Source of the DNA: Monocercomonoides exilis PA203
Taxonomy: Eukaryota; Protista; Preaxostyla
DNA: 64,000 bases
Direction of reading: 5' to 3'
Assembly: GCA_001643675.2 (NCBI GenBank)
Contig: LSRY02000009.1
Span: forward strand, 1,178,001-1,242,000
Part shown: positions 22,880 through 47,400 of the stretch, one piece after another
How the letters are laid out: each line of letters starts with the position of its first letter
Position numbering within the stretch: the first letter of the stretch is position 1
Notes under the pieces: model-generated
The model's input: only the letters and a program-made list of their open reading frames with translations
Told to the model about the DNA's origin: nothing
Database searches by the model: none
Made by a program: the position numbers and the translations under genes

Positions 22880-24179
22880 AAAATGGAGGAGTGAAGTCAG
22901 TGATTGTTGTTGATGCACAATAATAAAAAATGTTTAAAGAATTCTTTTTCATTTTTTTTAAAATTAAGTTAAACCCGTGATGCTGATGTTTTGATTTTTA
23001 TTATGCTTGTTTGTTGATTACAAACATGCAATCTTTTATCTGTTTCCTTCTTTTCTATTCTTTTCCTTTATCTTTTGATAAAATTAATTTGTTGGCTTTT
23101 ATTTATGGCAAATTGCCATACACTATTATCATCATTGAAGCTGTAGACAATCTTTGATGAATATATTAGCAAAACTTTTCAACAAATATTTATTTTTTGA
23201 AATCCTATTTGACTTATCGTGCATTTGTCGTTCAATAAAAAGTTTGCGATTTTTCAAATTATCTTTTGATCCTTGTTGATAAATAAGAATGTCTATTGAA
23301 AAACATTTTAATGATAATGTTCATTGAAAAATATATGTTGAAATATATTGGCTTTTAAATGAAGAGGAATTCAAAAATGGCTAATGTTGATTTGAAATGA
23401 AAGTTTATTGTTGAAATATTGAATATGAACAAAATTTATTTATTTATTTATTTATTTGATTTAATGAAGAATGAATAATCGAACGAAAAGTGATTCTTTT
23501 CCAAATTGATTTAAATATTCAATAAGATTGTTCAAGTTCTTTATCTTTCCATCTATTTTGTCCATCAATTTAAAGCACACATAAATTTCTTTTCTTCTTT
23601 TTTTCCCCCAGTCTATACCTAATTTTGCTGATCTATTTATTTTGCATGATAACATTCCTGAAAATTGAATTTGCGAGGAAATCTAATTCTTAATTATTAC
23701 TGATCAAAAAAAAAATTTGAGAGAGAAAATAGATATCCAATTTCTTCTCTTCATATTTGAGAGACCACTGCTTATTCGGAGCTTTTTTTCTGCAACTCAT
23801 TTGAGTTTCAGCCGTTCGTGTTTATTCTGAAATCTCAAGTCTTTGCAACTGGGCTCTTGTTCTAAAAATGAATGTTACTGATTCCTGATCCTTCTGCTCG
23901 CTTTTTGAAGAAGATCTAGTCTGAAACTCACTTGATTTTCCCTGGAAAGTTGAACTGCTTTGCTCTTTTCGACTTTCACAGCGGATCTTTGTGATTCTTC
24001 AAACATCTGACTCTATTCTTTCTATTGATTCGCCTTCAGACTCAGCCTCTGAATGAATTTGTGTGGAAATTTCTTCGTTCGTGTTTTCTGATTCTTCATT
24101 TTCTGAGTGGCTTCCTTCTCTTTCCCTTGCATTCTCATTCATTATTGCCAAAATAACGTTTGCCATTGATTTGGATAAT

Positions 24180-25100
24180 CGACTCTTGAAGGAATGCTAG
24201 ACCAGCGTGTTTGTCCTTGGTGACAATCGTGCCAACTTTGCAATTTGAGCTGGTGGAATATCATCCATTGTTAACTCCGACAGAGTTGCCGCTTTGAGAA
24301 AGAAAGGTGTGAATTTGGTTGGAATTCCTGCTTCTTCCATTGCATCCTTCGCCAGCCTTCTTATTCCGGAAACTGTGAGTGGCTCAAAGGTTTCTGTGTT
24401 AAGCAGCAAATGGGAAGTTCTGCTATTCTTTGTTTGAACAATTTCCCATAACGTTCAAATTGCTGAAACTGGGCAAATGAAAGGTACTTCTGACAGAAAG
24501 TGAACTGCGATTTCTGTTCTGGTATTTGATGTTTTTAAGGAGGTATCCAATTAAACACCATCCTCTGTAATTCTTGACTGGGACATGTTCACCCTTTCCA
24601 ATTCGGTGAACCTGCAGGCCGAGAAAAGCATTGTTAGAGTAATAACTTTGTGTGTAAGTGCTTTGAAAGTTAAATCGATATTTGGTCCCAGTTCATGATA
24701 GTATTTAAGCAGTGTTTTTGGATTCCATATCTCAGGCACTGTCTTCTTTCTTGTAGTGTCAGTCCTTCTGAACGATCGAAAAAAAATTCTTATAATTGGA
24801 ATCTTTCCCAAGGCTGTGTTGAATGCGAGCAATGAGAAAAAGGAAACCACTCTTCTAATCATCTGAAGCACAGAAACTTTGACCCCTTTATTCTTTAATG
24901 ATAAAAACATATCTGCACATTTTGCAGTCCACTCTGGTAGATTGTCTGGTATTTCTGTGTGCGAATGCATAATTTCCATTGTTCAGCAAAATGTGCAAAT
25001 CCGAAAAGGTATCCATCCCATGTGGATTGTGCAACGCCTTGTATGCATTGCTCACCACGCTCCTCTGAAATCTTTCGTTCCTGAAAAGCTTGCTTCCACT
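24180..25100 (-). pseudogene. Tyrosine recombinase of the DIRS element, inactivated
   Basis: IWNPKTLL, LTMLFSACRFTEL (box I Arg) and CPVSAI, with box II degraded to FTPFFLKAATLS...IAKLARLS. In-frame stops are present. Confidence 0.75.
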
Positions 25101-25199
25101 ACTGTTGACCTTTTCTTTTGAGGTATTCAGAAGAATGAGCCTGAGCTTCCCAGGAGGAAGACATACTCATGCCTTCTTCATTGATGGGCCTTCCAACAG

Positions 25200-26990
25200 T
25201 TTCTGGTTGTTGTAATTCAGCTTCCGACTGGAGAAGTTGCCGTTGTGCAAAAGAACTTCCCAGTTCTGGCCTCTCCAGTTCGGCAGGAGAAGAACAACTT
25301 GAGCTCTCTCCTGCTGCGATTTCCGAATAACCATCGGAATTAGCGGAATTGGAGGATGAGCAAGAACACATTCCTGACGCCATGGAACTGATTATCCGTC
25401 TTCGGATATGCGGCTTCCGATGATGCACAATCTTTTCTCTATATGATTGTGTTGAGGTGCGAATGCATCGACTGTTGGTCTGACTTTTGTTAATGAGAGA
25501 ATTCTTCGGAAAGCTTCTTCGGTTATTGAATAATCCCCTGCACTTATCAATCGAGACAGTGAATCCGCTCTGCTGTTCTTCTGCACCGGAATGTGATGAG
25601 CTCTCAGATGAATTCCCATCTTCTCTTTCCACGTCCACATCCTGCGAAGGATTGGCCTGAGGGTCTTTGCAGTTCTCCACCGATTGATGTTGAAAACAAC
25701 AGAGCTTTTTTCCGACCTCAGTGAAAGTTGAGAAAATAAGTTTGTTTTGATAATCTGTGAGAAATTGCGGAGTGCCAATAACATAAAAAACTGTTCCCTG
25801 AAATTTGATGATTTGTTGTGAGCGTATTTGTGGAACTTTTCATGCCAGTCCAGAATTCTGTTGTTGATTCGAAGTGTCGCCACCATAGCTAGCTCCGATG
25901 CATCAGTTGTTTGTGTTGCCTGAGGAAAAAATAATGGTTGGAGTTGTCGAGGCTTGTTCAGGTTCAGAATCCGTTTCCGTTCCCGTTTCTCCTTCAGCAC
26001 AGAGGCATTCATCATCATCATCCAGCTCCATCCTGTTGTCCTCACATTCTTCTGGAACAGACAATGCAAAACCACCATCAGGAGTGATGCGTCTTGTCTG
26101 ATAAAGCGAACTGCATTTATCTTCCCAATTAGTGAAGCGAAATCTTTTGTACGAACTTGTTTGGCCTTGACGCTCTTTTTCTCCCAGAGACAGAGGAGAG
26201 CTGCAAGAGAAAAAGCTTTGTCTTTTTCCAATCTCGCTGTGAACTCCTCTGTATCACAGTCGAAGCCCAAATAGGTGAATCTCTTCGTTGGTTCCAACTG
26301 GCATTTGTCCTTGTGAACCATTAGTCCCAAACTTATTAGGAACAACATCATTTGGCTCTTTATTCTTATTAAATACTCATTGTCCAGGTGGAGTATTATC
26401 ACATCGTCGAGATATGCAATCATTCTCACGTTCCATCTTTTCTTTGTAACTCTTGTTTCCTTCCTCAGAATCTTTGTGAAAATTTTTTGTACATCCATAA
26501 ATCCAAATGGCATTCTTTCGAATGAATAATCTGTTCCTTCGAACATGAAACTGAGATACGGTTTCAAATCTGATGAGACGGGGATGAGGTAATATGCTTG
26601 AACCAGATCCAACGTAATTGCATGATTGTCTTTCTGAATGAGGTGTTCTACAGTTTTCTCGCTCTCGCATTTTAAGTGCAAGCTCCTCATTGCAGCATTT
26701 AGTGGATGACAATCGAGGATCTGACGCCAGGCTCCTGACTTCTTTTTGAAAAAAAACACATTGTTTCTGAATTTGACCTGATTCACAGAACTTTAGTTGA
26801 TTATGCCTGAATCCAGTTGTTCCTTTAGCACACTTCTGAAAGCTCTCCGCTGTTCCTCGCTCATTCGCTTTTCTCCATCTTCCCAAGCTCTTTCTTTTAA
26901 TCTTTCTTTTGCTTTTTTGTCCTTCCAACAAGCATGTGCTCCAAGTCTGATTGATTATCCTCCCTTTATCTTGTCCCATTCCTGGGAAAC
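25200..26990 (-). pseudogene. DIRS pol: reverse transcriptase, RNase H and methyltransferase-like domain
   Basis: WRQILDCHPLN, ITLDLVQAYYLIPV, MPFG, YLDD, YLGF (RT); TTDASE and NSRADSLSR (RNase H); PTVDAFA...W..ECVLAHPPIPLI..VIRK...LLLPNWRGQNW (MT), continuing past a stop at 25392. Confidence 0.88.
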
Positions 26991-29189
26991 AATGTAGTTC
27001 TGCCTCTAATTATTATTTGAGCGCTTATTAGCATTTCTTGTCTCCCTCGGAACACACTGAAAGTCCCCTGCTCCATGTCTCCGCTGTCCTTCTTTGGGTG
27101 TATCGAAAATGTGGTTGACTTCGAGGCGTCCGGGGCCAACTTCCAAAAAACCGCCTTCAACTGAAGCCCTTTGCCTGCGTTGTTCTGTATGATGATCTTC
27201 CGACATTATCTGTTCTCTTTCGAAAATTATCCCCTCTGTGGAATTTTGAATTTGCTTCTGTTCAACACGAACCTCCTCCAAAATGTCTTGTTGCCTCTTT
27301 ATTAATAAGCATCACGTCGTATCTGCCACCATCTTTCAAGCGGCTGAAAACCCATATCTGCCTCGGATCCGAGCTCTTCTGGCTTTTTGAATTATCTGAG
27401 TCACTAGTCACAAAGCATCTTTTGTTATCTCACGAGTTAAATCTGGTTTCGTCTTTATGTTCTGAATGGATAATAACATTGCTTTGTTAGCTGGAAATAA
27501 ACATCTTTTTGCCTACTCGCCAGCCTTGTCCAATGCGTCGCGATACCAGAACTGTGACCTTACTGCTACCGGTGGGCAGAGATATGGAATATCGGATATA
27601 AATTTATTTTGATTAAGATCTATCAATATTATCGATATATGTGCATCTGGTGGTTGTTATCATCTGGTATAATAAGTTGGAATAGGTAATGATAATCAGA
27701 TAGAGGTCATGAGGAGATTGCTGATATTCTTAGGGGTTATCATGATTAGATATTCAGTGATGTTCAATAAAGAAGGAGTTATTGATAGGTGTAATCGAGA
27801 TACATCAATAGCCGATATACCATATCTCCAAGGAGGAAAATTGGCTATAAGATTAACTGAAAATGTTCAAGTTGGTAAATTAATGGTAAAATTGTATGTT
27901 ATCGTTGGTGAAATACATGAGTTGAACATGAGTTGAACATGTGATGTGAGCGTGGGTGAAATCGCAAATATAAATAATTTATTTTGTTTTTTGTTTTACA
28001 GTGAATGGGTCAGAAGAAGATATACGTAACTGTGGAAGAAGCTAAAGCGGCTCAATAGAGACAAAATTAACAGTTTCAGGAAAAACGCAGGGAAGAAACT
28101 AAGTATTTCAACGAACATGTATCTGAAAAATAGAAGAAGTTGATTTAGATATTGAGGAGAAAGCTTATCGAAAGTGATGAGCTGTTTGATGAGTTGATAG
28201 GAAAAGTTAATGGTTAAGTTGAATGCGTTTATTTTTTGTTGGAAGAGTTTATGGTTGCTTGCCTGGACCGGGTTGACTGGGTAGTTATTTATGATACTGT
28301 GGCATGGAAATATTGGGTTAAATCTCCGAGCTTTTCACCTGCACTGGGTGCACCTGGTCAATTTCATTCTCCAAAATATGTGGGCAAACGGGCAAACTGA
28401 GCAAATTGGGAAAAATACGATTAATATGCAAATAGATGAAATATTACAGACTACACACGTTATTTGTATCTACAGTTGAATCAAACAGTGTACACGTTGA
28501 TGTCATGGTGAATTGCCAACATCTATATTTTTCACAAAATTTGGGGCTTGTTTTGGTGTATTTACTTTGAAAAAGTGTCAATCGGTAGACCGGATACCGA
28601 ATTGTGGAAATATCGAGATGCTTGGGGAAGGTAAATATTGGCTAAAATCTCCGTGCTGGAAGCGTGTCCTGGTGTCCTGGTGGACCGGATCTTTTAATTT
28701 CATCTGAAAAGAGCTGCCAACATGCCATTTCTTCCAACATGGGTGTTTTCCACCTTATTTGTCGTGCTTTTGAGGAATTCTATTAATTTTCGATCATGTT
28801 GTCATCTTGCCACATTGCCACATGATATCGTTGATGGAAAATAACAAGTGGCATACATCAGTTATATCGTCAGTGGAACACATCAGTTTGCAACTACGTT
28901 GCTCAGGAGACTTTGCCTCCGTTGTCATTATTTCAGGAAGAAATTTTTAATTTTTGATGAGACAAGTTACTTGTCACAGTTTGTTCCGATATGATTTTCA
29001 GTGAAATATCGTTTATTTTGCATTAAAAATGATGTAAAAGTTGTGAATAACAGGTGAAAATCGTTTCAAAACACGTAATTGTCTGCACACGCAGCACAAC
29101 ACATCGATGACAGAAAGTGATGCTGTAATGATATCTTCCTTTGCATCCGTTGTTGGAATAGCTCTTGTGTTGAAATTGGAGAGATCTTT

Positions 29190-30369
29190 TTTGAGGAAAT
29201 AACAGAGAAGTTATTCATTGAATTCATAATCGAAAGAACTTGTGAAATCCTTGAAGAATGTGAGATTGTTCTTTTTTTTTGAGTTACAATTACAGACAAC
29301 ATATCTCCTGTCACCAATTTCATTCTTTACCGGGTATGTGTGATTTGTCACAAATATGAAATTAGCTACGTTCTCGGCTGTTCTTCTTGGCTGATTCTTC
29401 TCATAGATTCTGATTGTCGAATCCGTGATAATACTCTTCAATGCATCAAAGAAAGCTGTTCGATCATCTCCAACATTCTTCAATTCGTTAAGTTCAATCA
29501 GTATTTTTCCTTCAACGATGGAGTTGAACTGTTCTGTCAGTTCTGCAATTTCTGTGACATTTGGACATGAATATCCTGCTTGCAGTTCAGCAAGTACTTT
29601 TGTCCAGACATTCTTTCCAATACCTTGCAAACCTTTGAGAACAAGTGTTGTTTCTGCTTTTTTACCAGGATTATGAACAATTGAAGCAATCCAACAGAGG
29701 ATGCATCGATAGAGTTCTTCGTTATTGTTGGCGATAACCTCTCGTGTGAAATCCAAAATGGTTTGACGATTTCATCGTTTTGTTCATTTGCCATTTGGTA
29801 TTTGAACCCATGGAATAGGGAGAATATTAGAGGGTTATCTGAGAAGAACTTCATCTCATCGATCGATAGAACATGTGAGTACTGTTCGAAAGCTGCCTCA
29901 ACTGTGAGAGTTTTTTTATCATCATGCCAGAGTTTTATTGTTTTGAACAGTTTGTACATTGCTGATTTTGTCTTGAATGTTATCGAATAACAAGAGGAGT
30001 GAATGTCAAACTCTTTCACAATGAATTCCATCCTTGCTTCAACAAACCTCAGAACTTTTGTGAGATCTTTAGCGACTTCAGACAGTGGGGAGTATTGTTT
30101 TTGACAAGCGTTATCCCTGATTGCAGAGAATGAAAACGATGAGTTGAGATATATTTCATGAACAGTGATCTCTCGTGGAGGTTCTTCCTTTTGCTCATTC
30201 TCTTTTCTGGGAAGGGGAATGATCATGTCGTTGTAATATGTTGGATTCCATCTCTTGACAACCTTTAGTTGAACAAATGGATGTGACTTGTGATTTCTGT
30301 TCCTGTTTCGTTTCTCTTCATAGTGAGTGATTGCATTTGATGTTGGAGCATCTATCTCTTTGATTTGAG
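29190..30369 (-). pseudogene. C-terminal half of a primase-helicase: SF3/D5-like (DUF5906-type) NTPase
   Basis: PGKK...LVLKGLQGIGKN (Walker A at 29633-29610), LIELNEL (Walker B), LKSIITD, NFIFVTNH and DRRY. Frameshift near 29760. The frame ends at the hAT TSD. Confidence 0.85.
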
Positions 30370-30662
30370 TAAACCTGAATGACGTGCTGACTTTTGACGT
30401 GAAATTTTCGAATTCTGACGGACTTGGAAATTCCATTACTTCACCGTAAATATTTTTTCTAATTCTCTCATTGTCTTTTGAAAGTGTTAATATTATTTTT
30501 ATTCTAATAATATATCCTTTAAAATAATTAATAAATAATATCTTTGTATTTTGTTTTTATTTTTGATCACACAAATAACTTGTATTTCACTGACGTATTA
30601 GTCATTTGAGGAATTTAAAATGTCATTGAAGGTCACTGACGTCAGCTTCAGTCAATAAGCAA

Positions 30663-33600
30663 ATGGAAATACTGTCGAAAGGTTTTCAAAGTGAATTGCC
30701 TGACGAGTTGGTTTCGAGCCTCAATAACCCTCTAATTGTTTGCTTTTCAAAAAATGCATTTGATAAAATATATTATTTTGTATTTGATTCATTGCAAAAA
30801 GAAGCCTATGAAACAATGAAAAAGAAAATGGAAAAAGCGAAGTGCACTTTTTTTCAACTACAAAAACGCATTAACTCAAAATATGGAACAGGATAACGTC
30901 ATATTGGAAAATGAAATTCAAGATTCATTTTTTGTAAATTTTTCCAAGTGTTCATTCATCCAAAAAAGAAAAATGAATATATATCAAAGCTCAAATTTGA
31001 ACTGTTGGAAGATAATTAATGGATCACTTATGAAATTACGGACGAAAATGGATGTACAGGGAAAGATTGTCACAAGAATTTCCTTTGCCCTGTATCCAAG
31101 GATGGATATGCTTGTGGTATATCAGGAAGGAAGAATTATTCTATTACTAAACATCACAAATGCGATTCACTGAGTTTTCGAGAATTTTTGAATTTCAAAA
31201 AACAGATAGATTTACCCATAACCTAAAGTTCTCAAGAGCGCTCTATATCATTTGAACGAGATTGTTCACCAAAAGAATTGGAAAAACATTTAATTTCGAT
31301 GATTGGAAGGTGCAACGCTTCTTTTTTGTCTTCATCCAAAAGGAAGTTAATTCATTCATATTCTCCTTAATTCGAGCCGATCAAGCTAATCCTTCTATTT
31401 CACATATGTCAATTTTCCCATACTTAACACGAAGGAAAATTTCTCATTTGATCATCAATGAAAAAACTGACAAAGAGAAGGAAAAAAAGCAAAAAGTTTC
31501 AAACAAGTAAATAAGCGTAATGTTTGATGGAGCAACTGCTGCTAATAAAAAGTATATGGGTGAAAATTTTTGAAAAATCACCACAGATCAAAATTTTTAT
31601 CCCATTAATTTTTTAAAATTATTTGTTTCCATTTCAACACTCCTGCAGCACTTTTATCTGTATAATGTCACATACGAACTTATTTTCATAATCAAAAAAA
31701 AAGAATTTTTTTTATGAAAATTAAAAATTATTGTGATCAACAAGATTTTGTGTTTATTCAAATTTGAAAAAGGAAAAGCAAGTTGGTTTTTAATTCAATT
31801 CATTTTATCGAATGAAATAAGTGCTGGATGTTTTTCCTATTTGAAACGGATGATGTTTGTCACTTTATATTTGCAATTCATTTATATTTGAGTCTTTCTC
31901 TTATCCAGAAGGCTTATTAAGTGCGATGTTGGAGTGTTCTTCATTATCGTTTATAACTTTTTGTGATAAATCTTTTGTTATGGAAAATTCCTGTTCTCAT
32001 CATCAATAATCTTATTAAAAGTATCTTTTGCGAAATAGATCGATTTTCTTCAAAAACGGAAGTATAATTTTACAAGAATTCTCTTCTATAAGATGTCACA
32101 TTCTTTTATCTTAAAAACAAACTTTTGTTATCATGAGAAATTCTGCTTCAACAGATCGGGCTGTTTTATATTCTCATTGTTTTCAATTATTATGAAAGAG
32201 CCAAAACGAACAGATTGCAAACTACACCTTCAATAACATGTCTGTGAACAGTGTTTAATGCATTTATAACAAATTGGAGCATTAATGCGAATCGAGATTT
32301 CCGTAAGTGGAGAGACGATTATAAATAGACTGATCAAATTATTTTTGCTCTTTCATCTTGATTCACAATCCAGACCGACGTTTCATCGGATGCTATTTCC
32401 TTGGTCTTTTCTCCTCATGCACAATCCTGCCAAACTCCTGTGTTGAATGATACGATGTGGAATACTATCTTTGGAGATAACTGTTGTAATGATCTCATTG
32501 CATCACAATCACGATTATCAATCAATTGTTATTTGACACCTTGCAACTATACAACTAACAATATCATTTCTTTTCCTGACTTCTTCTGGCCAATGATGAA
32601 TGCTTCATCAATTTCAAGGCCACCTAACAAGAAAACCATTTTCACACATTTTTCAACATCATCATCTTCTTCTTCCTAATCTTCTTTTTCTTCTTTTTCT
32701 TCATAGCTTTCTTTTCATCTTTTTCTTTTTTCTTTTTCTTTTTTCCATTTGTTTTATTCATTAAAATGCAATATATAACAACGCATTTTTAACGTTAATT
32801 TCATGTTTATTGTTTTTTAAATACTGTCAATAAAAACGAAAGACAAAAGAAACATGATCCGAAAGGCGGATGAGGAAAACGAAGAAGAGAGTGAATTTTA
32901 AAGAAAGAGAAAAAGATGGTATTCAGCATGATAATATTGATGGAAATGAATAAGTGTGGAGGTGAAATCGAAGGATCGATCTCACAATATCCAATCGATT
33001 ATTGGAGCATGATATTGATCGTAAAATCTTTTTTCTCATAACTTGTTAATGATGTGATAAAAAAGCGGACAACAAGGCGCAGTTCCTTTCCTCTCCCTCT
33101 TCAACGGTTTTATCTTATTTTTCTTCATCACTAACTACACATTTCCATTTTGCAGCTTAAAGCAGACAGTCTCTTTCATCTTGATCCTCCCTTAAAACAG
33201 CTCCACAAAATCCTTCAGCAGCCGCACAATCCAGAGCGACAAGGTCGCTCTTCCTTCTTCGCAGTTCTAGATTTCACAGCGTTCGCTCATTCCCTAATAA
33301 ACATACCAAATGCTCCTTCGCAAGATTGTCCAGCTCATTCTTCAGCAGCTCACGTTGTCAGTTCACCATCTTCGCAACCTCGCTGTTCTCAGACGCCTTC
33401 ATGGATCCCTGCAGGTTAGCTACATCGCACACATGTGTTAGCTGCAGGCGTGGAGTGAAGAAACCATTGCGCTGACAAGCTTCCCACACAAACGCAAACG
33501 ACTGCAGACAGCAGCCAGATAGCATGTGGGTATCTCGGAAGATCTGCCACTGCAGCATCGTAGGTGTTTGCAGATTCTGTATGCACAGAGAGAAGAGATT

Positions 33601-36600
33601 CCTGCTCAGAACACATGAGCCCTCTGAACGCTGACGCCGACGATGTTTGCTGTGATGCTGATTTCGATAATATCGATGTGTGACTGCAGCATTATGCATC
33701 ATACAGTGCCTTTATCACATCCATCTGCTTAGCAGCTTCTCCTTGGTAGAAGGAGGATAGAAACTTCGAATTATCTAAAAAATCTGCATTCCTATCATTC
33801 ACATTGAAAAATGCTTTTCGTCTCACTCATTAAAAATCAGGACGAAAAATACCTAACATTTCATCTTCATTTCTTGTTTCAACTGCACAACCTTCTTTTT
33901 CTCATTTTCATACTCATTTCTCTGCATCTTCTCGCTCCTCAAGGATAGCCAGTAAAATCCGTTTGCGAAACATAGCCACACTTCACCTCCTTTTCCCTTT
34001 CTCCTCTAGGTTTTCCTCCTTGTTCTTCTGCACTTACACACGTCTCGAGTCGAAAATTTACCGTTAAATGCGTTCTGCTTCACCAAAAATACATATTTCA
34101 CACAAGGAAAAAGAAACAATAAAAATAAACTGTCGTTCTTCGGGGTCTCATTTGTATTTGATATACACGAAAGGCTGATATCCAATACAAATAATTACTG
34201 CATTCCACAAAAACTTATTCTCTTCATTTCTCCTCCTCCGGAAGTGTGAAGCAGATCATTGTGTTAATATGAATGGAAAAAAAAGTAAAGAAACAACCGA
34301 CCATGCAGCTAACGGTTTTTTGTATGAAAACTCTTTGAAAATATGATCAACATTTATACACACTTTCTTTTGAAATACATTCCTAAATGATGAAAGTGAA
34401 TTTCACATTTCGATCATTAACATTTTTGGTTTTTGTTAGGAAAGATATTATTGTTTAATAGCTTTTGCAAATAAATAAAAAAGTTCATTGCTTTTTATTT
34501 TCGTCTTCTTCTTAATTCATTGGTAATATTAAAGGTGAAAATTTAAATTTCTAAATTTCAAAAAGTTGGAGATAAAAACCTTTTGTTAGCATTATTTATT
34601 TACATAACAAATTCATTCAGATAACAGTTGTTTTGATTCAAACAAAAGAAAAGCAAAACTCATGTTATAGTAAAAATTTCACAGCACAATAAAACTAAAA
34701 TTCGTTTCAGAAAAACGTGTGGAAAAAAAAACAAATAATCAAATTATCAAGTAATAAGCAGTAAATAACTCAATGAAAGTTAAAAATATAAAGACGATAT
34801 ATCCAATTAAATGAGAAAATGTGTTAAAAAATCTACAAAGAAATAATAACGGTCAACGAAATAGATGTTTCGTTTTTTTGTGGGACAGATCAGACTAAAA
34901 AAAAGTGATTTTTCAAAAATTTTCACACATATGGAGGTGAATGTTTCCATTTTGTCTTTGAATTTTTCTCCGTTTTTTGGGGTCTTCATGAATCGTGTGG
35001 AACTACATCGGAGTTTTTTTTATTCATTCAACAATTAATCTCAGAGTTTCGATCATTCAATGCAGTGATCAGAAGTTTTTGCACTGATGGTTTTTCTTCA
35101 CAGAAAAAGGCAATAATTCAATTCTCTGAATTCGATGAAACTTGCTCATGAAGTTCTGAAATCAACAGATACTCGTTTTTTCCAGTTCATATTCATTGCT
35201 GCAACCATCTAACAAATTTGGTCATCATTAATGCTTTTTCAACAATACCGTTTTAAATTTCTATCAAACAAAAGTTTCAAGATTTTGCACAACGATCCCA
35301 TTCTAAATCTGTAAGAACACTCTTGAAAAAGCGCATTCCTTCATTCGTCACAACAAGATGGACGAGCCTGTTCAAAATTTCTTCATTTATTAGGAAAAAA
35401 TTCCATGTTGTTGTTAATCAAAAATTTATGGATTATTCAAGTGCGCTAGATATAATCAAAACTGAGTTGTTGCTTTTCCTTCTACAGAATCTTTATTTGA
35501 AGTTTGAAAAAGACAGAACAAAGCTTTGCCAAGTGTTTCCTCATTTACTCGATTCATTTGATTATCTATTTTATATTTCCAAGCATCATTTTGTTTCAAG
35601 ATGCAAAATGGCACAGCGCAATCGCAAACATTATCATTTTGTTACATAATTATTTTTTAACAGGAATTCGGGGGGAGTACGTGTCACTTTCTTATGCATT
35701 AACCCCAGAAGGAATACAACTATTAAGAAAACACACATTTCCGAAAACTCAACTTTCTTCATCTTTTTCATTGGAGTGTACTATTCAACAATCCGACTCA
35801 AATGAAACAATTGTGTTTAATCAATCTCAATCTTCCCCTGTTTCAATTTTCCTTCCTTGGCCTTTTCCATTAAATATTTCGGAAAAATCATATTTTGTGT
35901 TAAAAAATATATATTCTTTCGATTCTTCAACTTCCTTCATGAATGAAGATACTCATGACATTTATGATCTTTCAATGCCTAAAAGAAAACAAGTTTGCTT
36001 CGACAAACAAAATTCATCAATTAAAAGCAATAGTTTGCAATCAATATTTCTTCATTTTTTTTTAATTTTTTTTTTTAATTTTTTAATGATTTTTAGGTTC
36101 GGAAAATAAAAATGAGGAATTTATTGAGATCGAAAAACTTTTAAAAGAAATTGAAGAAAAAGAAAAAGATGATTTAACGAAAATTGGTGAATTGAAGGGT
36201 TTGGAAGACAGTGAAAGCGAAGAAAGCGACGAACATGGACTAGCACAAGCAGAAAATGATTCAATAAATGATGTATATGATTGTTTATTTCGTTAGGAAT
36301 TGGAAACAGAAGATTCTTCATTTATACGGGAAGATTTTGCTTCATCATCAACATCTCCTTCTTCTTCCATCTCACAGACTTTGAGATCTTCTTCTTCTTC
36401 TTCAGAATATTTTTCAGATATCGATACTGAATTGAGAAATGACTCCTATCATTGTGCATGCATCATAGCTGGAGAAGAGACGTTTCAAGATGAAGACGAA
36501 GAAGAAGTACGGGAATTATTTTCGACAAAGAAAATAGATTTATGTTTAGAATTCAACGAAGAGAAAGAAAAAACTATTTTGCAAGAAATACAAAATTTGC

Positions 36601-36947
36601 TACACACAAACTGGTTTCCTCGACTTTGCAGATCATTTACGAATTATGCTCGGAGTGTGCTTAAAGATTATGGAAACAATTCTATAACTGCTTGCAAGTT
36701 GTTCTTTGAAAATCAGATGAAATCGAAGCCAGAAGAAATAATCGAAAAAGATCCAGAAATCTTTAACAATGTAATTGCTGAGTCTGGTTATCTCCAATCG
36801 TTGTATTCAGGCTTGTGTTTGTCACTGATCCTATCTCCATGCATCGAAGAAAGCTGCGAGAGAATTATTTCAAAAATCAAAAACATAATTGGAGATAAAA
36901 GAAACTCGATTAGCTTACAAACTTTGGAAGCATTACTTCATATTTAA
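30663..36947 (+). pseudogene. hAT transposase, decayed and split by the 31558-34928 insertion
   Basis: CPVSKDGYAC...TKHHKC (BED-finger-like); ISVMFDG (first D); after the insertion FCTDG (second D), HCCNHLTNL (CxxH), TTRWTS; C-terminal SPCIEESCERIISKIKNIIGDKRNSISLQTLEALL (hAT dimerisation region with catalytic E). Confidence 0.9.
31558..34928. mobile_element. TIR element (3.37 kb) nested in the hAT transposase; probable 4-bp TSD ATAT
   Basis: GGGTGAAAATTTTTGAAAAATCAC (31558-31581) vs GTGATTTTTCAAAAATTTTCACAC (34905-34928), 23/24. ATAT at 31554-57 and 34929-32. Removing the element restores AAG TAT ATG GAG GTG (KYMEV) in the transposase. Confidence 0.85.
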
Positions 36948-37899
36948 CTTTAATCACTGTTTTGTATTTGTCTTATAAAAATTTATTTCATTTCATTCTA
37001 TTTTTCAAGTTATTCTTATTGAACATGCAAAGCATATAAATCATATTCAAGAATAAAACGCTTTCAACGTGATTAAATGATCTTTAAGTTGCGAATGATT
37101 TCTCTTTATATATTTTTTAAAAAATGGAAAATCATACAGACATATGTTTTTATCTTAATATAAAACGTTCATTCACTTTGTCTAACATCGCAAACTTGTG
37201 GTTTTATGTTCCTGTAATGAAGGACTTTGAAATTGAAATTTCATGAAAGATTGTTTCAAATGAACAATGCAAAATGAAAACAAAACAAAAAATGGAGATG
37301 CACTTTCTCAGCATCATCAATTCAAACTTTTATTATTAAATGAACATTGATCTGGTTGAGTGTTAGCATTTAGTCATTTCATTCGATTGATACAGCTTGT
37401 GGAATGAAGATTGCTTCACTAACCTTCATTCAAGAAATTATTTATTGCCTGATTCATTCCTTTATTCTTCTCTTCCTCTTCTAAAAATCATTCGATTAAC
37501 AAATCATTCCTTCTTTAACTATTTTGACATTTGCAATTCTTCCTAGTCCATCCAAAAAAACAACACAGCAATGCCATTCTGTGGAGAGAGCTCCGCACGA
37601 TCAAAACATTTTTTAACCATTTGCATCTTGTCAAATGCACTAACAGTTTCATGTTTTGGAGAAATCTCAAGAATCCTTCCCTCAACAGCTGTGTGGATGA
37701 GCACTGCTGGATCATTGAGAAGATGATTCTGCAGGAAAAGCTGTCACTTAACTATCAAAACAATATTTTTGCCCACGAGCTCACACTAACAGCGGAGACA
37801 TTCAACCTCCATGACGAAAAACTTTTCACAGAGGCTGAAATGCACTTTTTGCAGAGTCTGTTCCATTTGACTTTCAATATGGGTGCTGATCCGCTGGGA

Positions 37900-38760
37900 A
37901 ACAATACGTTTTGGAGATCGCGTGGCAGACGATCAGTTTTACCGAGGAGCATAATGTGTTTGAGATCGGGCGAGGAGAAGAAGCAACGGAAATACGCTTT
38001 CTGGTGCAGGCGCCCATCGGCGAGGTGGATGCACCAATGCAATCGATTGTGCTGCAGAACGAAGGTGGGACAAGTATTGACTACAGATTCGACCTGGCTG
38101 ACGTGGAGCGGCTGAATGCTTCAGCGTAGGATTTCCCTCTGTTTGAGTGCCATGTTACGAGGGGTATTGTTCCTGCGTATGCGAAACAGATGATATGCTG
38201 GAGCTTCCGTCCACTGATGCAGAGGGGATATTTGGTTAGGATTCCGATCAAGCTGGGAAGCAGATACAGTTCAATGAATGAGATAAACGAGAATGTTGGA
38301 GGAGGAGCAGTTAAGAGAAGGAAGTGATGGACAGAAGGTATCACATACATGGAAACTGTAATGCAAGCTCTGCTGGCGGGAGACGGTTTCATCGCGAAGG
38401 AAGGTGCAGAGCCGCTTGTACATGAAAAATCGACAACAATTCTAGGCTCCTCTTTTTCCTCTTTCTGCTCAGCAATATTTATAGCAGCATGAGCGAATTA
38501 ACTTTATGAGTGTGACAGGTTGGAGCATGGAGCGGAGGCTGGTGCACCTGGCGTGTCCGCGCACAAAACCGCATCTGGCGCTGCAGAATAGGGTGAATGA
38601 GAAAAGAGAGAAGAGAGGCATCCTGCATGACTGGAAAGAGAGCCATCCGCTGATCAAGTTGCAGGTTTAAACGATTCAGCCGATCAGGGGAAAAATTGCA
38701 GAATGAGAGAAATGTGTGTGTGTTGTGAAACTTTCAGCGATGCGTTCGGTTATTTTGGTG
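37900..38760 (+). pseudogene. CFAP65/hydin-like (ASH/MSP Ig-domain) gene fragment inside the hAT element
   Basis: APIGEVDAPMQSIVLQNEGGTSIDYRFD...N...DFPLFEC...GIVPA...ICWSFRPL...YLVRIPI, then RLVHL and IQPIRGKI. This matches the recalled CFAP65 pattern, with stops. Confidence 0.55.
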
Positions 38761-40599
38761 AATTCACTTCTGCAACTTTCTCTTTCGATGAATTCGAAGT
38801 GGAATTCTTCAATTGCGAATCAGAATTCTTCATCGTCTTCTTCCATTAATGGTGTTAGTGCAAGTTCAGAAGTTAATCAAATCTTTTCTTATCATCGTTT
38901 CCCTTCAGCCCGTCGTTCATCTTCTGTGAATGGTACTTCTTCTTCCTCTTCTGTTGTTTTTTCCAACTTTAACTCAGGCAACATTGACGACCACTCCCCC
39001 ATCGCCTAGCTCTCCACACAGCACTCTCAACTTTGGAAAAATCAAAGGGATTCCTTCTTCTTATCCTGTGCCTTCTCGATCTTCCTCTTCCTCCTCGCTG
39101 GCAATTGCCCCGAATCAACCAAGCATCCGCAAGCAGCCACCGAGAGTGAGTGTCATTGAGCGCATGACGAAATCTCGGGGCATTCAAATAGCCACCAGAC
39201 TTAAGTGGATCCGGACTGTCCTGGAAAAAGCAAGAAACGAAGAGAACTAGTTTCTGTTGGCGCTGGCAAGGCAGCCTGTTGAACAGCTTTCAGCAGCTGC
39301 TGTGTTAACACTGCAATTGCGAAAAATGGTCGGCAGCATTCTGCTTAATGAAACAACGAAGCAGGCGCTTGATGTGGCATTCCAGGCAAAAGCAGAGTGG
39401 AAGGTCAGGATTTTGCAGAAGGAGAAGGAGAGAAAAGCGTTTGGGATGAACAACCTCACTCCAACGACGTCCGCCATGAAAGGAACTCCAAGAGAGTACA
39501 AAGGGAACTTGGGTCCGCTGAGAGAGTCGCGAAGCAGCAGTGCTGGAGGAAGGAGGATGACTGATGCAGAAGAAGTGATCGGAGTGAATGTGTCTCTTCC
39601 TCCCTTGTTGAATCCGTCTTCTGGCTCTTCTTCTGGTTCTGGTTCACTTTCAGTTCCATTGTATTCTCTGCAGGGAATAGTGCAACAGTGGTTTATGCAA
39701 TCACAGGAGATTCAGGGAATTCAATGGCTTATTTCAACTTGAGAAATGAATAAGAATTACTACGTATTTCGTCTGCAACCTTTGGGGATGCAGAGTTAAA
39801 TGAAGGGGAAGAGTGCATGAAGGGCGGATGCCATCGAAGGAGAAGTTTTGTCTGTTGGATGGGCTGCAGAATTTGGATGGAAACGATTTGGACAGAGGGA
39901 TGAGGGGAATGCTGGGCTAAGGAGACGAAGATTGTGAATGGAACGGCTGTTTCAGAGAGCCATATCAGTAGATATTTTTGAGAGTGTCATTCAAAAATAG
40001 CTCGACTATCCGATTTTCGGAGCTGCATAAAGCTTCTCTTCTTTTAAAAGTGTTTCCATTTCAGCCACTGCTCAGTGCAAACAGTAATGGAGCTATTTCT
40101 TCTGTTTCTGCTTCATTGTCATCTTCAGTTATCACTTCTTTATCCTCATCTTGCTCCGCTGTTGCATGCATTTCTGGTTCGTTATTCTCTTCTCGTCCTT
40201 CTTTTCTCCTTTTTCACTAAATATTTATCATCACAAAAATTTCTTCAATTCTTTTGACCACATTTCCTTTCAAAATATATTATAAGATCAAGAACTTCGT
40301 TTTCTTTCACTTTGCTCATCTGTCTTCCCTCTTTTCTTTCTTTTCCATTTTTTCTCTTTCTAATTTTTGTTTCTGCTTTATTTCTTGACAAATGCTCTTT
40401 TTCTTCATTTTCCTCTTTATCCCCGATTCCGATGATGAATGCAAAGTGATCCAATCAATTGAAGCAATGATGATGATGATGGGGATGGGGATGAATTCGT
40501 GTGATACGATGTCGATGAATTTGAAGAAGAAGATGATGATGAATGAATAGAACGAGTTGATTAATTGTTGGAAATAAAGAAGATAAGTGTCTATTTGCA

Positions 40600-41560
40600 T
40601 CAACTGAGAAATTCATTGAAATTCTCTTCTTTTATTTCTTTAATGTTCTTCTGGTGAGCAGCATCCACTGAATCTTTCACGCATTCAGTTTGAATTTCTT
40701 TCTTTCAAACATAAAAATGAAAGAATTTAGCATTTTTTCATTTCTCCTTTCAAATTCCATCTCTTCAACATTCAATTCCCCTTTTTTCACAAAAAATCAT
40801 CTTTCCTCAAAAATAATTCTTCGCCAAAGGTTGATTCCAGGCATCTTCATAATATCTCGCATTTCATCTGTCTGTCTGTATTTTTCCTTTCCTGCTTTTC
40901 TTTTTCTTCTTCAAAGCCAGCTAATCCCTCGCTGTTTCAACATCCTGAATGAAAAAAATAATAATCACTTCAAAAATATTCAACAAACCTTCTAAACATT
41001 TTTAAAGGCAATGTCTATATTTAATCCTATTGGCAACTGTTTTCTTCAATTCAATTTCATAATTCCTTCCTTTTTCAAGTGTTTCATCATCTGATTCTCC
41101 AATCATCCTTTACATCAGTTGTTTCTCCATCAAGTGCATCGATTTCTTGCTCTTCTGAAAAATGTGAAATTCATGCATTCTGCTCAAATTCCATCTTTCT
41201 CATTGAAAAATATTCTGTTTTTTCGTTGGAAAATATCATCTCCAATTCCCTTCCAAATCCCTTCATCCTGGGCACTTTCCATATGAATTCGCTGTCCGAT
41301 CTTGATAGTCGGACTGAATAACAAGAAATAGTGCTTTTATTCATTTTCGATCATTTCTATCTGCTGCTCTGAAATCAGTGCAAAAGCTGTAAACAACCAG
41401 ATATTCGTATAAAGAAAAATAAACAAATAACAAACCTTCTTCTCTATTTAAAACAGAAAATCCTTCTTCAGCGCCTTATGTGTCCACTAAATTTTTGTTT
41501 ATCCAAGGAATACTGCTTATTTGAAATGCGTAGCTCTATTTCTTCAATAGTTAAAAAATT
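40600..41560 (-). pseudogene. Intron-containing host gene fragment inside the hAT element
   Basis: Coding-like minus-strand segments separated by AG|GTTTGTT donors (reverse complement AACAAACCTTCT near 40982 and 41428), with many stops. Confidence 0.4.
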
Positions 41561-42052
41561 AGAACAAAAAGAGAAATAGAAATCATTCCAATTCTTAAAG
41601 ATACTATCTCAAACTTACATAGAAAAATTGCGTTTCATGACTGAAATAAATGGTATTATTTCTTTTTCATTAACAACAAAAATAAAAATTTAAGCAAACA
41701 TGTCAATATCCATTTCTTTTTCATATTGAAGTTCAATATATTCAGAATATATGGGTCAAGCAATTTATCAAAAAATAATAAACAAATCAAAAATTTTCCA
41801 AAAAATTGTAAAGCCCAATTGCTGATCTTTGATTTTTTATAATTTTTTAAAAATTGTTATGGAACAAAAAAATTAAAAAATTTGAAAATGCATTAATATA
41901 TGATAAATAATATTTTTTAAATGAATGCTTTTTTAGAAATTTTTTGCATTGGACTCCAAAAAACAAACGAATTTGAAATTTTTAAATACTGACGTGAAAA
42001 AACTCCAGTGACGGACGTGAAGGGAAAATCTTCTTCACGTCACTCAGGTTTT

Positions 42053-42800
42053 GATTTGAGTGAAAAGAAAATATATTGATTGGTTATCAAAACCGTTAAT
42101 GATGACAAGAGAATTGAGAGCTGCAAATAACGGCAAATAAGTTAACTCAGAATCAAGTGACAAAGAACCTGTATCATTATGTATTTCAACATCTTTGAGT
42201 CCATCAACAAAAGCAAGAGCGAGAGTTGGAGACATATCAGCGACACCATCTTGTGTGAGAAGATTGTGTGGTTCAGCTGCCATTGTCGCTGATGTATTCT
42301 CTGTTTTGAGGTCAATTCCGAAGATGTCAAGAACACTCTCAAGTGATGAAAGATCTGTGAGCTGTCTGTAATTGTTGAGGTGAATGTATTTGGTGATGAT
42401 TTTCTTGAGATCTTTCATCTCTCTGTATGAAGAGTCAGCATGAACAACAAGCCTCTGTTTTCCATCTCCAATACCCACAATGATGTCGATATAGTACTCT
42501 GGACTCGTGAAAACTTTGGTTTGTGACGAATATTTAAGGGGATAACAACACGGCTCATAATAAATGTGAAGACCTCCATGAGCTGTTTGTACAAGTCCGA
42601 TATTTCGGGGTAGTTTCTCGAGAATTGAATTCCTGATGGTTTTCGTTTGTTCAGCTTGAAGGGATTTGTTGATATCAACATCAACTACATAAAGATCCTC
42701 ACATTTGCTGATATCGATGTCTGTTCCTGTGTACCATTAGCCCCACTTCTTGTCAGGAGATGGGTCATTCTTTTTGAAAAATTGCACATGTTCAATGAAT
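42053..42800 (-). pseudogene. N-terminal half of the primase-helicase: Prim-Pol (AEP superfamily) domain
   Basis: DLYVVDVD (DxD at 42682-42674) and GLVQTAHGGLHIYY (motif II His), then a frameshift into ORF 42044-42478, which reads ...FLFTQI up to the TSD. Confidence 0.82.
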
Positions 42801-43591
42801 GCAATTAATAAATTTGAAACTTTTTTTGAAATTTTTGGAACAGATCCATCAAAATACCATCATTAGGCTAATTCGAATATTCAAACCTATTTGATGTGAG
42901 AATCAGTGCATTGTGGAGTAATATGATGGATTTGCTTCAAAAAAAGATAAATAATGATTCAATTTTGTTTAGTGCAGTTTAAAAACAATTGCGAATTTTC
43001 AAAAATTATGACCCATATTTGTCTAATTTTTTTTGAAAAGTTCCTATTGTTTAATTTTCATAAAAAATTTTTTTTCATATTTCAATCAAATTTCTGTTCC
43101 CACTCACTGAACTGCACCAAAATAATAATATTATTATTATCAAGATTTTGTTTTCACGACTGTTAAATTTTGTGACTGAAAACAGAAACTTGATTGAAAT
43201 TTGAAATTTTTATTTTATTTGAAAACAAAACAAGAGGAACTTTTCAAAAAAATATAATGTTATAATATTTTTTAAAACAGGTTTCTAGCAAAATTACCAT
43301 CAATGAACAACTGTGAAAAGAAAAAGAACATTTCTCGATTTTCAAGAAATTTGCTGGGGGCGCGTTAAGCACCGATGGTATAAAAAGAATCATGAAAGGA
43401 AAACAAAACAAAATAAAATAAAAAGTTTTCAAAAAAAGATGTGTGTTTGATTGATTAATTAATCTCTCACAAACAGTGAAAAAAGGAAGGAATATAAATA
43501 CGGCAATCACTTATTGAATTTAAAAAAAGATAAATACAAGCATAACTGACTGTTATTTTGAAAAATTACAAAACATAGCATAACAATTAAT

Positions 43592-44479
43592 CTAGATAAC
43601 ATCAACTTCCGGGAATTTCACCTTTCCTCTTGTTCCAGAAAAAAATTTGACGAGTGGATACTGCTGTACTTCTGGATCATTTCCCCATCTATCCGCAACA
43701 CACTTTGCTTCCCATTTGCATGATTCGTACAGCTTATAATAAGTATCTTCTGATCTTTTAAGAATGGCATTTGGCTTTCCTTTGTAATCGCGCTGGACAA
43801 CTGTTTGCATACACACGTATGATGCTAAATACGTTCTAATGCGTTCACGCTTTGTGTCTGTCGCAGGCACGTAAATGGCCGGGCTTTTCAACACTATTCC
43901 TTCTTTAATGCGGTCTTTTATGTAACGCTTTCCTCCCACTGACAACATGTATTTGAACTCTTCAAACGCTTTTCCAACAATCGGGCTCCTCTTCGGCGCT
44001 ATCAAAAATCCCATCTCAATGTGATACGCGGGGTGCCACCAACTGTTGAACGCAAATAATTCTGCCTTTGCTTCTGTTATTTCCCGATAGCTCTCCTCCA
44101 AAAATGTTTCATTGCAAACATATATTGTCGCATCCATCCATATGCCCCCGTAATCGTAAAGCGTTTTAAGCCGATAATAGTCGGCTTTGTTCGCGCTTGG
44201 AAGATTCTTCATTTTGTATTCAATCTCATCTCTTTCCATGTAAAAATGAAGCGTCGAGTCCGTGATGAATATGAGAGTGAAATCCTTGACTTTTTCCTTC
44301 AAGTTGTGCAAAAGATAGCGCACTTCTCGATTCAATTTGCCTTCCCAATAAAGCCAGATGATTTTTGGAACTTCATACGAGTCGTCATCCTGAGCATGCG
44401 CATCTGTTTTCATGGCATATCCTTCCTCAACCAGTGCAGCTACAGAACAGAAAAAAGGAATAAACAACAGCAGGCACAT
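43592..44479 (-). CDS. DxD-type glycosyltransferase (GT32 / capsular polysaccharide synthesis protein-like) with signal peptide
   Basis: VPKIIWLYW and ADYYRLKTLYDYGGIWMDAT motifs. Hydrophobic N-terminus MCLLLFIPFFCSVAA from ATG 44479. Intact and intronless. Confidence 0.85.
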   Translation of the reverse strand: MCLLLFIPFFCSVAALVEEGYAMKTDAHAQDDDSYEVPKIIWLYWEGKLNREVRYLLHNLKEKVKDFTLIFITDSTLHFYMERDEIEYKMKNLPSANKADYYRLKTLYDYGGIWMDATIYVCNETFLEESYREITEAKAELFAFNSWWHPAYHIEMGFLIAPKRSPIVGKAFEEFKYMLSVGGKRYIKDRIKEGIVLKSPAIYVPATDTKRERIRTYLASYVCMQTVVQRDYKGKPNAILKRSEDTYYKLYESCKWEAKCVADRWGNDPEVQQYPLVKFFSGTRGKVKFPEVDVI

Positions 44480-47400
44480 CCAAGAAAACGCTGTTATTTG
44501 AAATAAAATTGAAAATGTGTTCAAATTTATGCATTTAATAAAAGCATTGACAAAATCACATATCAATCTGACAGGACAAAATGAAACAAAGCACACTTCC
44601 CAAGCAGCTGGGGCTGAAGATTTCGAGAACGATTTTATTTGATCTCATGCATAACTTGCTCCAAAATCAAAATTTCAAAAACTTCTTTTGATCGACAAAC
44701 ATATGTATGTGGAAAACCCAAAAATGAAAATGGCTCATTTATTTATTAAGAACAAAAGATCATCAAAAGAGAAAGAAAAATTATGTGTCAAATCAGAAAA
44801 AAATTGATTTTCAACAATTCCACACAAACAGAAGCTTTTGTGGAAATGCCAAGTTGAAACAGAAAAATAAGCGATATTCCAAGCATGATGAGCAAACCTC
44901 GCTCGAAGGCACAAAAAGCAGAATTTCTGCCAAATGTGAAAATGTGCATTCGAATTCGAGAATAAATCGTCCCAGTTGCAGAACTTGTCTCGCATCGCAC
45001 ATCAAATTCTTCCAAAGCACTGCTCCATCTGGAAGCATTCATTTCCGATGGGTCTGATTTTTCAGGCAGAATGTATTGTTGCAGATTCAAAAGGGAATCC
45101 ATCAAAAGAGGAGAAGCCCAAAGACGAGATTTGTCGTTCATCTGACTTCTTTCCCTTTGCTCTTCAAGCGAGCAGAAATGGATTTTGACGATGGTTGTTT
45201 CTGTCATTGGCTTGAAGTGATTGGCTTCAACAGCAATTTCATGAGGCCAAACGTTCAAAGAATCTTCCAAGAAATGATTATTGAGATTGACATTTTAATT
45301 AACAAAGCTATCTGGAACGAATGAGAAATCGGAATTTCTCGAATTTCTTCTTCGTCTTCTTCGTCATTGATGTCTTCTTCGTCTTCTTCGTCTTCTTTGC
45401 CTTTGAGGTTCATGAAGCGAATTTCAAGCATCTCTTTCGCGGATCAATCAAACCCCATCAGATTGTGTTTTGGCAGCATCATTTCCTTCAAAATCGCAAA
45501 ATGTGTTGGGAGCATCATTGGAGCCAGCAAACATGTTGAATTTGAACCCGATCATTCGAAGCGAATTGCTAGCCAAGATATGATGCAAGCACGCAGACGT
45601 CTTGAGCGTTGATGATGATGAAGGGAAATATGTTTGAAGAGCGATAAAAGAAAGAAAGAAAAAGTTGATGAGTTTTTTTTGCCAGCTATTTGTATTGCTC
45701 GAATTAATTGTATCTTCTTTGCCTTCTTCGTAATCATCTTCGCCTTCGCGTTGTTCACCAACCACTTCAAAATCTTGTTCTTCCAAAAAATCAGCTTCTT
45801 CGGTTTCTTCATCTTCATCATTTTCTTTGTCTTCTTTTCCTTCTTCAGCATCTTCGGCTTCAGCTTCAACTTCATTCAGATTCGCATTAACATTCTGATC
45901 TTCAAATAGCTTTCTTGATCTTTCACTTCAGTTGTCGAGCAACAAATCCTTGTTTGTTTGGAAAGTGCCTTTCTTTCGAATCCGTCACTTTTATTGACAA
46001 TGTTTCCAGTGAATATATTTTCATTTCCCTTTTCCAAAAAAGTTATTTGTTTTCATAATTGTTTTCGATGTGAAAGTTCTTCTCCAATTCTCAAAAATGC
46101 AACAATGATGAAGCAATATCACCATCATCATGATCGTTAAAATTCACTTCAATTCAATCTGGAAATTGTGTTTGTTTCCTTTCCCCAGCATTTCTTCTTC
46201 ATTTTTCGTCATCTGTCTCCTCTTTCCTTTCACTCAAATTCAATCTTGGAGATTGCAATATATCGGAAAAACAATGGCTTTTCACACAGACATTTCGTCA
46301 TCTGCAAGTTCCTTTGCTTTCAAAAGGCTTCTTCGACATTTGTCTGCCTCTTTCTCTTTCCAGAAAATATGTTTTCAAAATGACACAATCATTTCATTCC
46401 GTTTTCATTTCATCCCTCCAGCAATGAATGCAACTGAACTTGGTTGAAGAATTCCAACATTAAATCTCCTTGTTTCCTTGTGCCAAGGGGAAATGAAAGG
46501 CTCATTCATTCGGCGCGAACTTTGAGCAAAGCCATCTGAGGGAGAAAAGAAGAAAGCAACTGAATCAGCTTCGCACTTTTGAAAAATTCTATCTAGAATG
46601 TGAAATAAACGAAGTGAATTGGTTGTTTTATTTATTGTGAAAACATAAAAAGGAAATAATTATGAAGACAATTTCTGTGTTGATAAAGAGGAAAAAGAGG
46701 AAGAATGAAGAAGATAATGAAGTAGGGAAATTGATGGAAAAGATGAAAATGGCTATGGTGATGATTGTGATGAAAATTGAAAATGAAGGAAACCTTTTCG
46801 GTTAAAAATGAATCGTTTCCTTGCATTTTCAATTCATATTACAACTCTTCTGTTTCTAATATAAAAGCTTTATTTGAGCTAACTCAATGGCTTCCACCAT
46901 CTTCTCCTTTTGTCATGCTTTTTTTATGGAAGTGTTCTATAAGTAATTGATGGACATTTCACAGTCTGAATCTTTCCTAATTGAATCTGCTCCGAAAACT
47001 TATTGATCATGGAGAGGAAATTCACTGATTGGGATAACATGTATGCAATTCCTTAAAAAAAAAAAGCATCTTCAAATTAGAAATCTGCATGCAAATGCTT
47101 TAAACTTTCTTCCTCTTTCACAATAACAATGGGCAAATGCATACTTAACGGCAATTTTCAAAACAATGAAAAAACAGTTTATAAATATAAAGGAAGTTAT
47201 TTAGTGTAAACCTCCTCATCACCACACCAATGACGAGCTTTTTTAACATGAGTGACTGACAAATTGATAATCACTTTATCACTTTTTTATTTGATCTAAT
47301 GTTTTTTTTCTGCTTCTTAATCCATTCAGAAAATAAAAATTTGATATCTTTTTTCATAAATATTTATTTTAAATTTGAAAAAAAAGTCTTTTTTCCAAAC

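Follow-up and report, generated by a model that had tools for sequence, protein, structure and literature searches.

A dead primase-helicase gene, probably from a Maverick/Polinton-like element, split by a hAT-like insertion in the oxymonad Monocercomonoides exilis

Fusions of an archaeo-eukaryotic primase (AEP) domain to a superfamily 3 (SF3) helicase are common replication modules of Polinton-like viruses (PMC11161782; bioRxiv 10.64898/2026.06.19.733378; PMC3671162). In Polinton-like viruses and group-2 Maverick-Polintons, the same two-domain module is exchangeable with a protein-primed DNA polymerase B (pPolB) (PMC11161782; bioRxiv 10.64898/2026.06.19.733378). The polymerase of the bacterial phage NrS-1 likewise primes and polymerizes, and it assembles into a hexameric ring that acts as helicase (PMC7102993). 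In the parabasalid Trichomonas vaginalis, the 1705 copies of class-3 Mavericks (TvMav3) carry genes labeled DNA primase (91.8%), DUF4108 (58.8%), HNH (24%), and Poxvirus D5 (8.6%) (PMC12289875), and the same primase is listed for T. vaginalis Mavericks in PMC7845603. Metamonad elements are reported to be unplaced among virus groups (bioRxiv 10.64898/2026.06.19.733378). Here, we describe a gene for an AEP-SF3 fusion in a 64-kb stretch of a contig from the oxymonad Monocercomonoides exilis (the window, in which all coordinates below are counted). We regard this gene as dead and as probably having once served the replication of a Maverick/Polinton-like endogenous DNA virus of oxymonads; a hAT-like insertion has since split it.

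A split primase-helicase pseudogene

Both halves of the gene lie on the minus strand and are separated by the 11,683 bp between 30370 and 42052. We compared them with P0004 (gene model MONOS_12125), a full-length M. exilis protein of 758 amino acids (aa). The N-terminal half (42053..42754, minus strand) encodes the AEP Prim-Pol domain, with the motifs VVDVD and TAHGGLHIY and a downstream D, and the start of a helical domain. It is truncated at its 5' end, carries an in-frame stop codon at 42737-42739, and corresponds to P0004 aa 45-279, which align to 42754-42050 with 84% identity. The middle part (29756..30361, minus strand) encodes helical domain and helicase head, is in frame with the N-terminal half after the insertion is discounted, and corresponds to P0004 aa 273-480 (aligned to 30379-29756, 85% identity). 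The NrS-1-type SF3 helicase core (29094..29765, minus strand), with Walker A (GLQGIGKN), Walker B (NE), motif C (N), and DRR, lies in another frame, contains a stop codon at 29211-29213, and is truncated at its 3' end at approximately 29098. This core matches PF19263 and NrS-1 6k9c and aligns (29765-29094) to P0004 aa 478-701, and identity is 84-85% in all three P0004 segments.

At the junction, the minus-strand codons read DNQSIYFLFTQI from 42053 upward, where the first half ends in ...FLFTQI, and KEIDAPTSNAITHYE from 30361 downward, where the second begins with KEIDAP. The halves are colinear with P0004, and no residues are lost or gained at the junction relative to this protein. A preliminary description of this DNA had held that halves 11.7 kb apart rejoin in frame, and this is borne out by the colinearity, by the exact residue continuity, and by a direct repeat at both ends of the insertion. 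All motifs quoted in that description are found in the window copy. The ~1.9-kb gene that it described, a joined stretch of 1.97 kb, is not the whole gene, as both ends are missing. Intact relatives with fused halves, which it had proposed to look for, do exist, in that full-length P0004 and others carry both.

The window copy lacks ~44 N-terminal and ~80 C-terminal residues of a ~780-aa protein and has one frameshift near 29760 in addition to its two in-frame stops. Contigs from four runs of one sample, which cover window positions 27500-32600, were used to check this region. Contigs of other copies have loose ends before 29098 and carry the gene on past this position. The frameshift is not a read error, because gap-free contigs with 0-1 differences cover the site. 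Private amino acid changes in the window copy affect 12 of 123 conserved sites and 56 of 478 others (p=0.63). Among 13 copies from T. vaginalis, such changes affect 4 of 1737 conserved sites versus 168 of 7014 others, so that conserved sites are spared. The window copy is thus a pseudogene decaying without selection, and its AEP and SF3 motifs are all kept.

The C-terminal part of the protein matches PF19263 in Pfam (E 5.6e-20) and, by sequence, the helicase chains of NrS-1 (6k9c, E 2.4e-16). For the intact relative P0004, a structure was predicted with AlphaFold2 from an alignment of 73 sequences (predicted local distance difference test score, 86.6). Model residues 367-757 superimpose on the NrS-1 C-terminal region (Z 26.7, root mean square deviation [rmsd] 4.1, 365 aligned), and residues 25-196 match the prim/pol domain of pRN1 (3m1m; Z 9.9, rmsd 3.3, 150 aligned), 1ro2 (Z 9.5), and the NrS-1 prim/pol domain (6a9w; Z 8.1), all with middling Z scores. 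Foldseek concurs, with NrS-1, the African swine fever virus PrimPol, and phage or virophage primase-helicases as matches. Among the 73 relatives, D69 and D71 of motif I (DxD) and residues G104 and G105 are invariant, and H107 of motif II (sxH) and D134 of motif III (D) are 99% conserved. The SF3 motifs (Walker A, Walker B, motif C, and arginine finger) are 99-100% conserved in the family.

The Pfam Prim-Pol profile (PF09250) has no match in 12 full-length relatives or in the window piece, and the family is divergent. The profile check proposed earlier thus gave a match on the SF3 side (PF19263) and none to PF09250, and the Prim-Pol assignment is based on the fold match and motif conservation. 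Judged by this predicted fold, the protein joins an AEP Prim-Pol of the pRN1/NrS-1 type to an SF3 helicase of the NrS-1 type. This agrees with the fusion that had been read from the sequence, which the PF19263 and NrS-1 matches, the fold, and the motif conservation all support. The phage NrS-1 polymerase is the best structural match and has the same arrangement of Prim/Pol, helical domain, and SF3 helicase with head and tail (PMC7102993). However, it belongs to a bacterial phage, it shares only ~18-20% identity, and sequence matches to phages extend over no more than 41% of the oxymonad protein. By analogy, the oxymonad protein may have had NrS-1-like activity. We found no literature linking T. 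vaginalis to NrS-1.

The hAT-like insertion

The insertion (30370..42052, plus strand, 11,683 bp), as delimited by repeats and contig loose ends, has 18-nt imperfect terminal inverted repeats (TIRs; 15 of 18 nt alike) and holds a decayed, split transposase together with host-like sequence. A 12-nt direct repeat flanks it (30359-30370 = 42050-42061). For any two given places, the probability of agreement by chance is 3e-5 over 8 bases and 2e-7 over 12. We read this repeat as an 8-bp target-site duplication (TSD), GATTTGAG, with a left copy at 30362..30369 and a right copy at 42053..42060 (both plus strand), because contig loose ends put the start of the element at the T of 30370; a 10-bp duplication is also possible from sequence alone. 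In each of the runs X1 and X2, seven contigs start at 30370 with mixed flanks (agreement 0.49), as would be expected of a transposon end present at several sites. The consensus of the eight bases before 30370 in the contigs fits nTnnnnAn, a target preference of hAT elements. Four contigs of run X4 diverge from the window at 30368 and go on in sequence like that from 42060 onward, so that paralogues without the insertion exist.

Two stretches, delimited mainly by their translations, make up the putative hAT transposase. The decayed N-terminal part (30660..31560, plus strand; also marked by repeat depth) has a BED-like W..C..C..H pattern and an FDG motif and gave no family match. The decayed C-terminal part (35050..36947, plus strand; also an Atlas lead) contains TDG, HCCNH, TRWTSL, and a dimerization-like C terminus. 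The motifs of both pieces are presumably those of hAT transposases, and neither piece has a Pfam match. For the last open reading frame (ORF) of the insertion, the first three Atlas matches are to Dimer_Tnp_hAT (scores of 0.89-0.90, 124-140 shared features), below the recognition threshold.

Given its short TIRs, 8-bp TSD, dimerization-like C terminus, and multiple flanks at one end, the insertion is likely a hAT transposon. It is unlike typical members in that 11.7 kb is unusually long and in that its decayed transposase is interrupted by ~3.4 kb, with ~5 kb of unrelated-looking DNA after it. The split runs from ~31593 to ~35000, and 10 contigs in X2 have a loose end at 31593. Broken host-gene-like sequence at ~31593-35000 and 37000-41700 may be a nested insertion or captured cargo. 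Beyond the primase-helicase gene itself, this locus contributes a large hAT-like element.

Gene family, relatives, and origin

In M. exilis, the family comprises at least 23 gene models, which are distributed over 15 scaffolds that differ in length; some of the models may be halves of one locus. The only listed model that covers the gene without gaps is MONOS_12125 (P0004/P0111). Summed contig depth on the gene corresponds to ~10-90x that of unique-looking pieces, and this depth does not equal copy number. Copies differ pairwise at 6-24% of residues, with little structure. With its mostly broken models and a window copy decaying without selection, the gene is not a single-copy housekeeping gene, in accord with the preliminary description. 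MONOS_12125 itself is full length and has all catalytic motifs, and its private changes fall on 1 of 126 conserved sites versus 25 of 522 others; the resulting selection signal (p=0.04, uncorrected, one of 11 tests) does not survive correction. This model may be the youngest copy or a domesticated gene.

Unclassified repeats have been published as 35% of the M. exilis assembly, and the finding gives a name to one large repeat family of an oxymonad that had lacked a classification. We found no published description of the family in Monocercomonoides, although the 196 transposon- or virus-derived genes in the supplement of PMC6759080 may already include some of its genes. The main texts of two M. 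exilis genome papers do not mention "Maverick" or "poxvirus."

Relatives occur in Streblomastix strix, T. vaginalis, Histomonas meleagridis, and many further assemblies. The cluster of a 770-aa T. vaginalis relative has 198 members, which lie on several chromosomes and in part bear the name "Prim-pol domain family." No relatives were found in viral contigs scanned with P0004, family alignments, or the ATPase sequence and alignment, and genome-contig scans with P0292, P0085, and P0042 likewise yielded none. Helicase identity is 66% to Histomonas, 57% to Trichomonas, and 40-56% to Streblomastix, which suggested horizontal transfer from parabasalids, and a quick helicase-only tree of 91 rows left this open. 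A more careful tree of full-length sequences comprised 34 proteins out of the 91 helicase rows (LG+G4, midpoint root, no approximately unbiased test). Transfer from parabasalids is rejected because this tree joins M. exilis, S. strix, and two further proteins in one clade (100/100) apart from the parabasalid proteins. Such a separate clade points to a long association with oxymonad hosts.

Genomic context is available from loci retrieved by similarity. Four close loci were found by helicase (L001, L002, L003, and L007). In L007, the only full-length relative fetched with flanks, a full-length fusion (40% identity) adjoins DUF4108, an 837-aa pPolB-like ORF, and an A32-like ATPase, a neighborhood like the primase-DUF4108-ATPase-PolB arrangement of TvMav3 (PMC12289875). 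Here the fusion co-occurs with a pPolB-like gene, whereas the two are exchangeable in Polinton-like viruses. L001 and L002 represent a single element, in which a helicase-only version is flanked by an A32 ATPase on one side and an HNH nuclease on the other, and L003 is too short to show context. Four contigs were found by ATPase, namely, L007 again, L011, and two short ones; in L011, a contig selected by its ATPase, a related helicase adjoins the A32-like ATPase. This helicase (L011:2299-4836) is fused to a different, unrecognized N-terminal domain, and together with the helicase-only form of L002 it suggests module swapping within such elements. L007, L010, L011, and L012 are Maverick-like eukaryotic contigs in genomes labeled as bacterial metagenome-assembled genomes and are likely binning contamination. 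None of the best 120 of 482 ATPase homologues is named Monocercomonoides, which has no bearing on the presence of the ATPase there.

The T. vaginalis copies are 96-97% alike and have their conserved sites spared, whereas those of the oxymonad share 76-95% and are for the most part broken. The TvMav3 relatives also belong to another clade than the oxymonad proteins, and the window has no Maverick neighbors left. The published TvMav3 labels "primase" and "D5" presumably refer to this gene family. On this reading, the metamonad Maverick "primase/D5" gene gains a precise structure, that of an NrS-1-like Prim-Pol plus SF3 replicase.

The gene likely belongs to a known kind of element, the Maverick/Polinton type, rather than to a new minimal replicon. 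Relic status in a self-replicating, virus-like, multicopy, nonhousekeeping element, as first proposed, is supported by the fusion, by the at least 23 gene models, and by the intact relatives. The suggestion of an undescribed family is not upheld, since T. vaginalis Mavericks have been published with "DNA primase" and "Poxvirus D5" genes and L007 is a Maverick-like cluster. The locus is classed as a relic gene of a Maverick/Polinton-like element and is not called a Maverick, because neither the ATPase profile nor tblastn revealed any Maverick gene in the window. The ancestral protein may have acted like the phage NrS-1 polymerase, its hexameric SF3 ring unwinding DNA while the AEP domain primed and copied it, as fold and context suggest, and it may have done so beside or instead of the pPolB of the element. 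The element would then have spread to tens of genomic sites. The window copy would subsequently have lost both ends and decayed without selection, after which the 11.7-kb hAT-like insertion would have entered it and duplicated 8 bp of the gene.

Several observations weigh against a Maverick/Polinton-like source. A profile of 32 metamonad-type ATPases detects no A32-like ATPase in the six frames of the window, and the other ORFs of the fetched loci have no tblastn match there. Next to the relatives in L007, L002, and L011, such an ATPase is weakly supported. In L007, the A32 (E 0.002) and DUF4108 (26.7 versus a cut-off of 27) matches lie below Pfam cut-offs, the pPolB call comes from Atlas and motifs read by eye, and neither capsid nor integrase is apparent. 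This sole full-length fusion in a Maverick-like context belongs to another, probably parabasalid, branch. Two of the four ATPase-selected contigs (1.8 and 4.0 kb) have no helicase. The link to the TvMav3 labels is drawn from names and numbers and not from sequence. Finally, the at least 23 M. exilis gene models exceed the six major capsid protein matches reported for this species (820 are reported for S. strix; PMC10120064). For the polymerase of L007, sequence searches against Pfam, PHROG, and PDB gave no match. A tblastn search of the window with the L007 and L010 polymerases gave no pPolB match, and its sensitivity is low because the two are only 22% alike. No Pfam match to an RVE integrase or jelly-roll capsid was obtained among 30 window ORFs, a search in which no metamonad-type query was used. 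The preliminary description had likewise seen no capsid, ATPase, or integrase gene next to it. The missing capsid and integrase neighbors are attributable to the truncation of the window copy at both ends.

These observations also bear on whether the gene left the Maverick in oxymonads and became a stand-alone, capsid-less minimal replicon of ~2.5-3 kb that copies itself with its own primase-helicase and integrates via the enzyme of another element or host repair. Besides the negative searches of the window for Maverick genes, none of the M. exilis gene models includes additional sequence of a viral neighbor. However, the window copy is cut within coding sequence at both ends and thus shows no termini, and a self-comparison of the window reveals no long TIRs bracketing this truncated copy. 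Relatives with readable flanks lie among Maverick-type genes, in that L007 is a Maverick-like cluster and helicases stand beside A32-like ATPases in two further elements, which counts against the "minimal replicon" of the preliminary description. Many metagenome contigs of 2.3-3 kb are also expected when full-length ORFs are picked from fragmented assemblies. We therefore consider such a replicon unlikely, and it retains this small probability because gene copies outnumber reported capsid genes. A bolder version, in which the primase-helicase escaped the Maverick in Monocercomonoides as a single-gene replicon free of capsid and integrase, with MONOS_12125 still active or domesticated as a nuclear NrS-1-like all-in-one replicase, is similarly doubtful. 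The significance would be greater if the gene moves without a virus or if the host uses an intact copy; as found, it is modest.

It is quite improbable that a gene of oxymonad-virus origin was amplified passively, as transposon cargo or by segmental duplication, with MONOS_12125 possibly domesticated. Repeats are nested throughout the window, and the hAT-like insertion holds host-like sequence, as this account would have it, yet a single burst after which the copies decayed separately would produce differences of 6-24% with little structure, as observed. Likewise, the full length, complete motifs, and spared conserved sites of MONOS_12125 fit domestication, but its p value does not hold up when all 11 tests are corrected for, and the signal is equally expected if this copy merely inserted more recently. 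An assembly artefact, or the chance closeness of two separate gene fragments, is very improbable indeed. None of the 32 contig pieces listed (4662 more are unlisted) spans the left junction, and the contig check covered the left side. Against this stand the matching TIRs, the exact residue continuity, a target duplication whose two copies both lie within the gene, and the fact that the two halves have diverged to a similar extent from the intact relative. The Maverick/Polinton-like origin of a gene later split by a hAT-like element thus remains the explanation that we favor.

Surroundings of the gene

Past the broken 3' end of the gene lie a decayed DIRS-like retroelement and other repeats. 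The DIRS-like element (~24000-27600, minus strand) has an RVT_1 match, and RNase H-like, methyltransferase-like, and tyrosine-recombinase-like motifs were read in it by eye. A high-depth repeat cluster occupies 27580-28857, with summed depth up to 15,000 at 28013-28183; a small inverted-repeat element lies at 27579-27828, and a terminus lies at 28857.

Farther away, 54185-58043 contains two 422-nt arms that are 100% complementary and ~3 kb apart, around a 437-aa host-type ORF (56332-57645, minus strand). This ORF has no Pfam match, and no direct repeat of at least 7 nt was found at the places tested near the arm ends. Two long uninterrupted ORFs match families common in bacteria, namely, a Caps_synth glycosyltransferase (43595-44644, minus strand) and an Acyl_transf_3 protein (7069-8385, plus strand). 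TvMav1 and TvMav2 carry a glycosyltransferase-like gene, and the former ORF was considered as a Maverick gene, but nothing ties it to one. Finally, a short AT-rich element that has inverted ends and resembles a miniature inverted-repeat transposable element occurs twice, at 43026-43232 and 9838-10076. The two copies are 69% alike, and one of them lies ~270 bp upstream of the broken 5' end of the gene.

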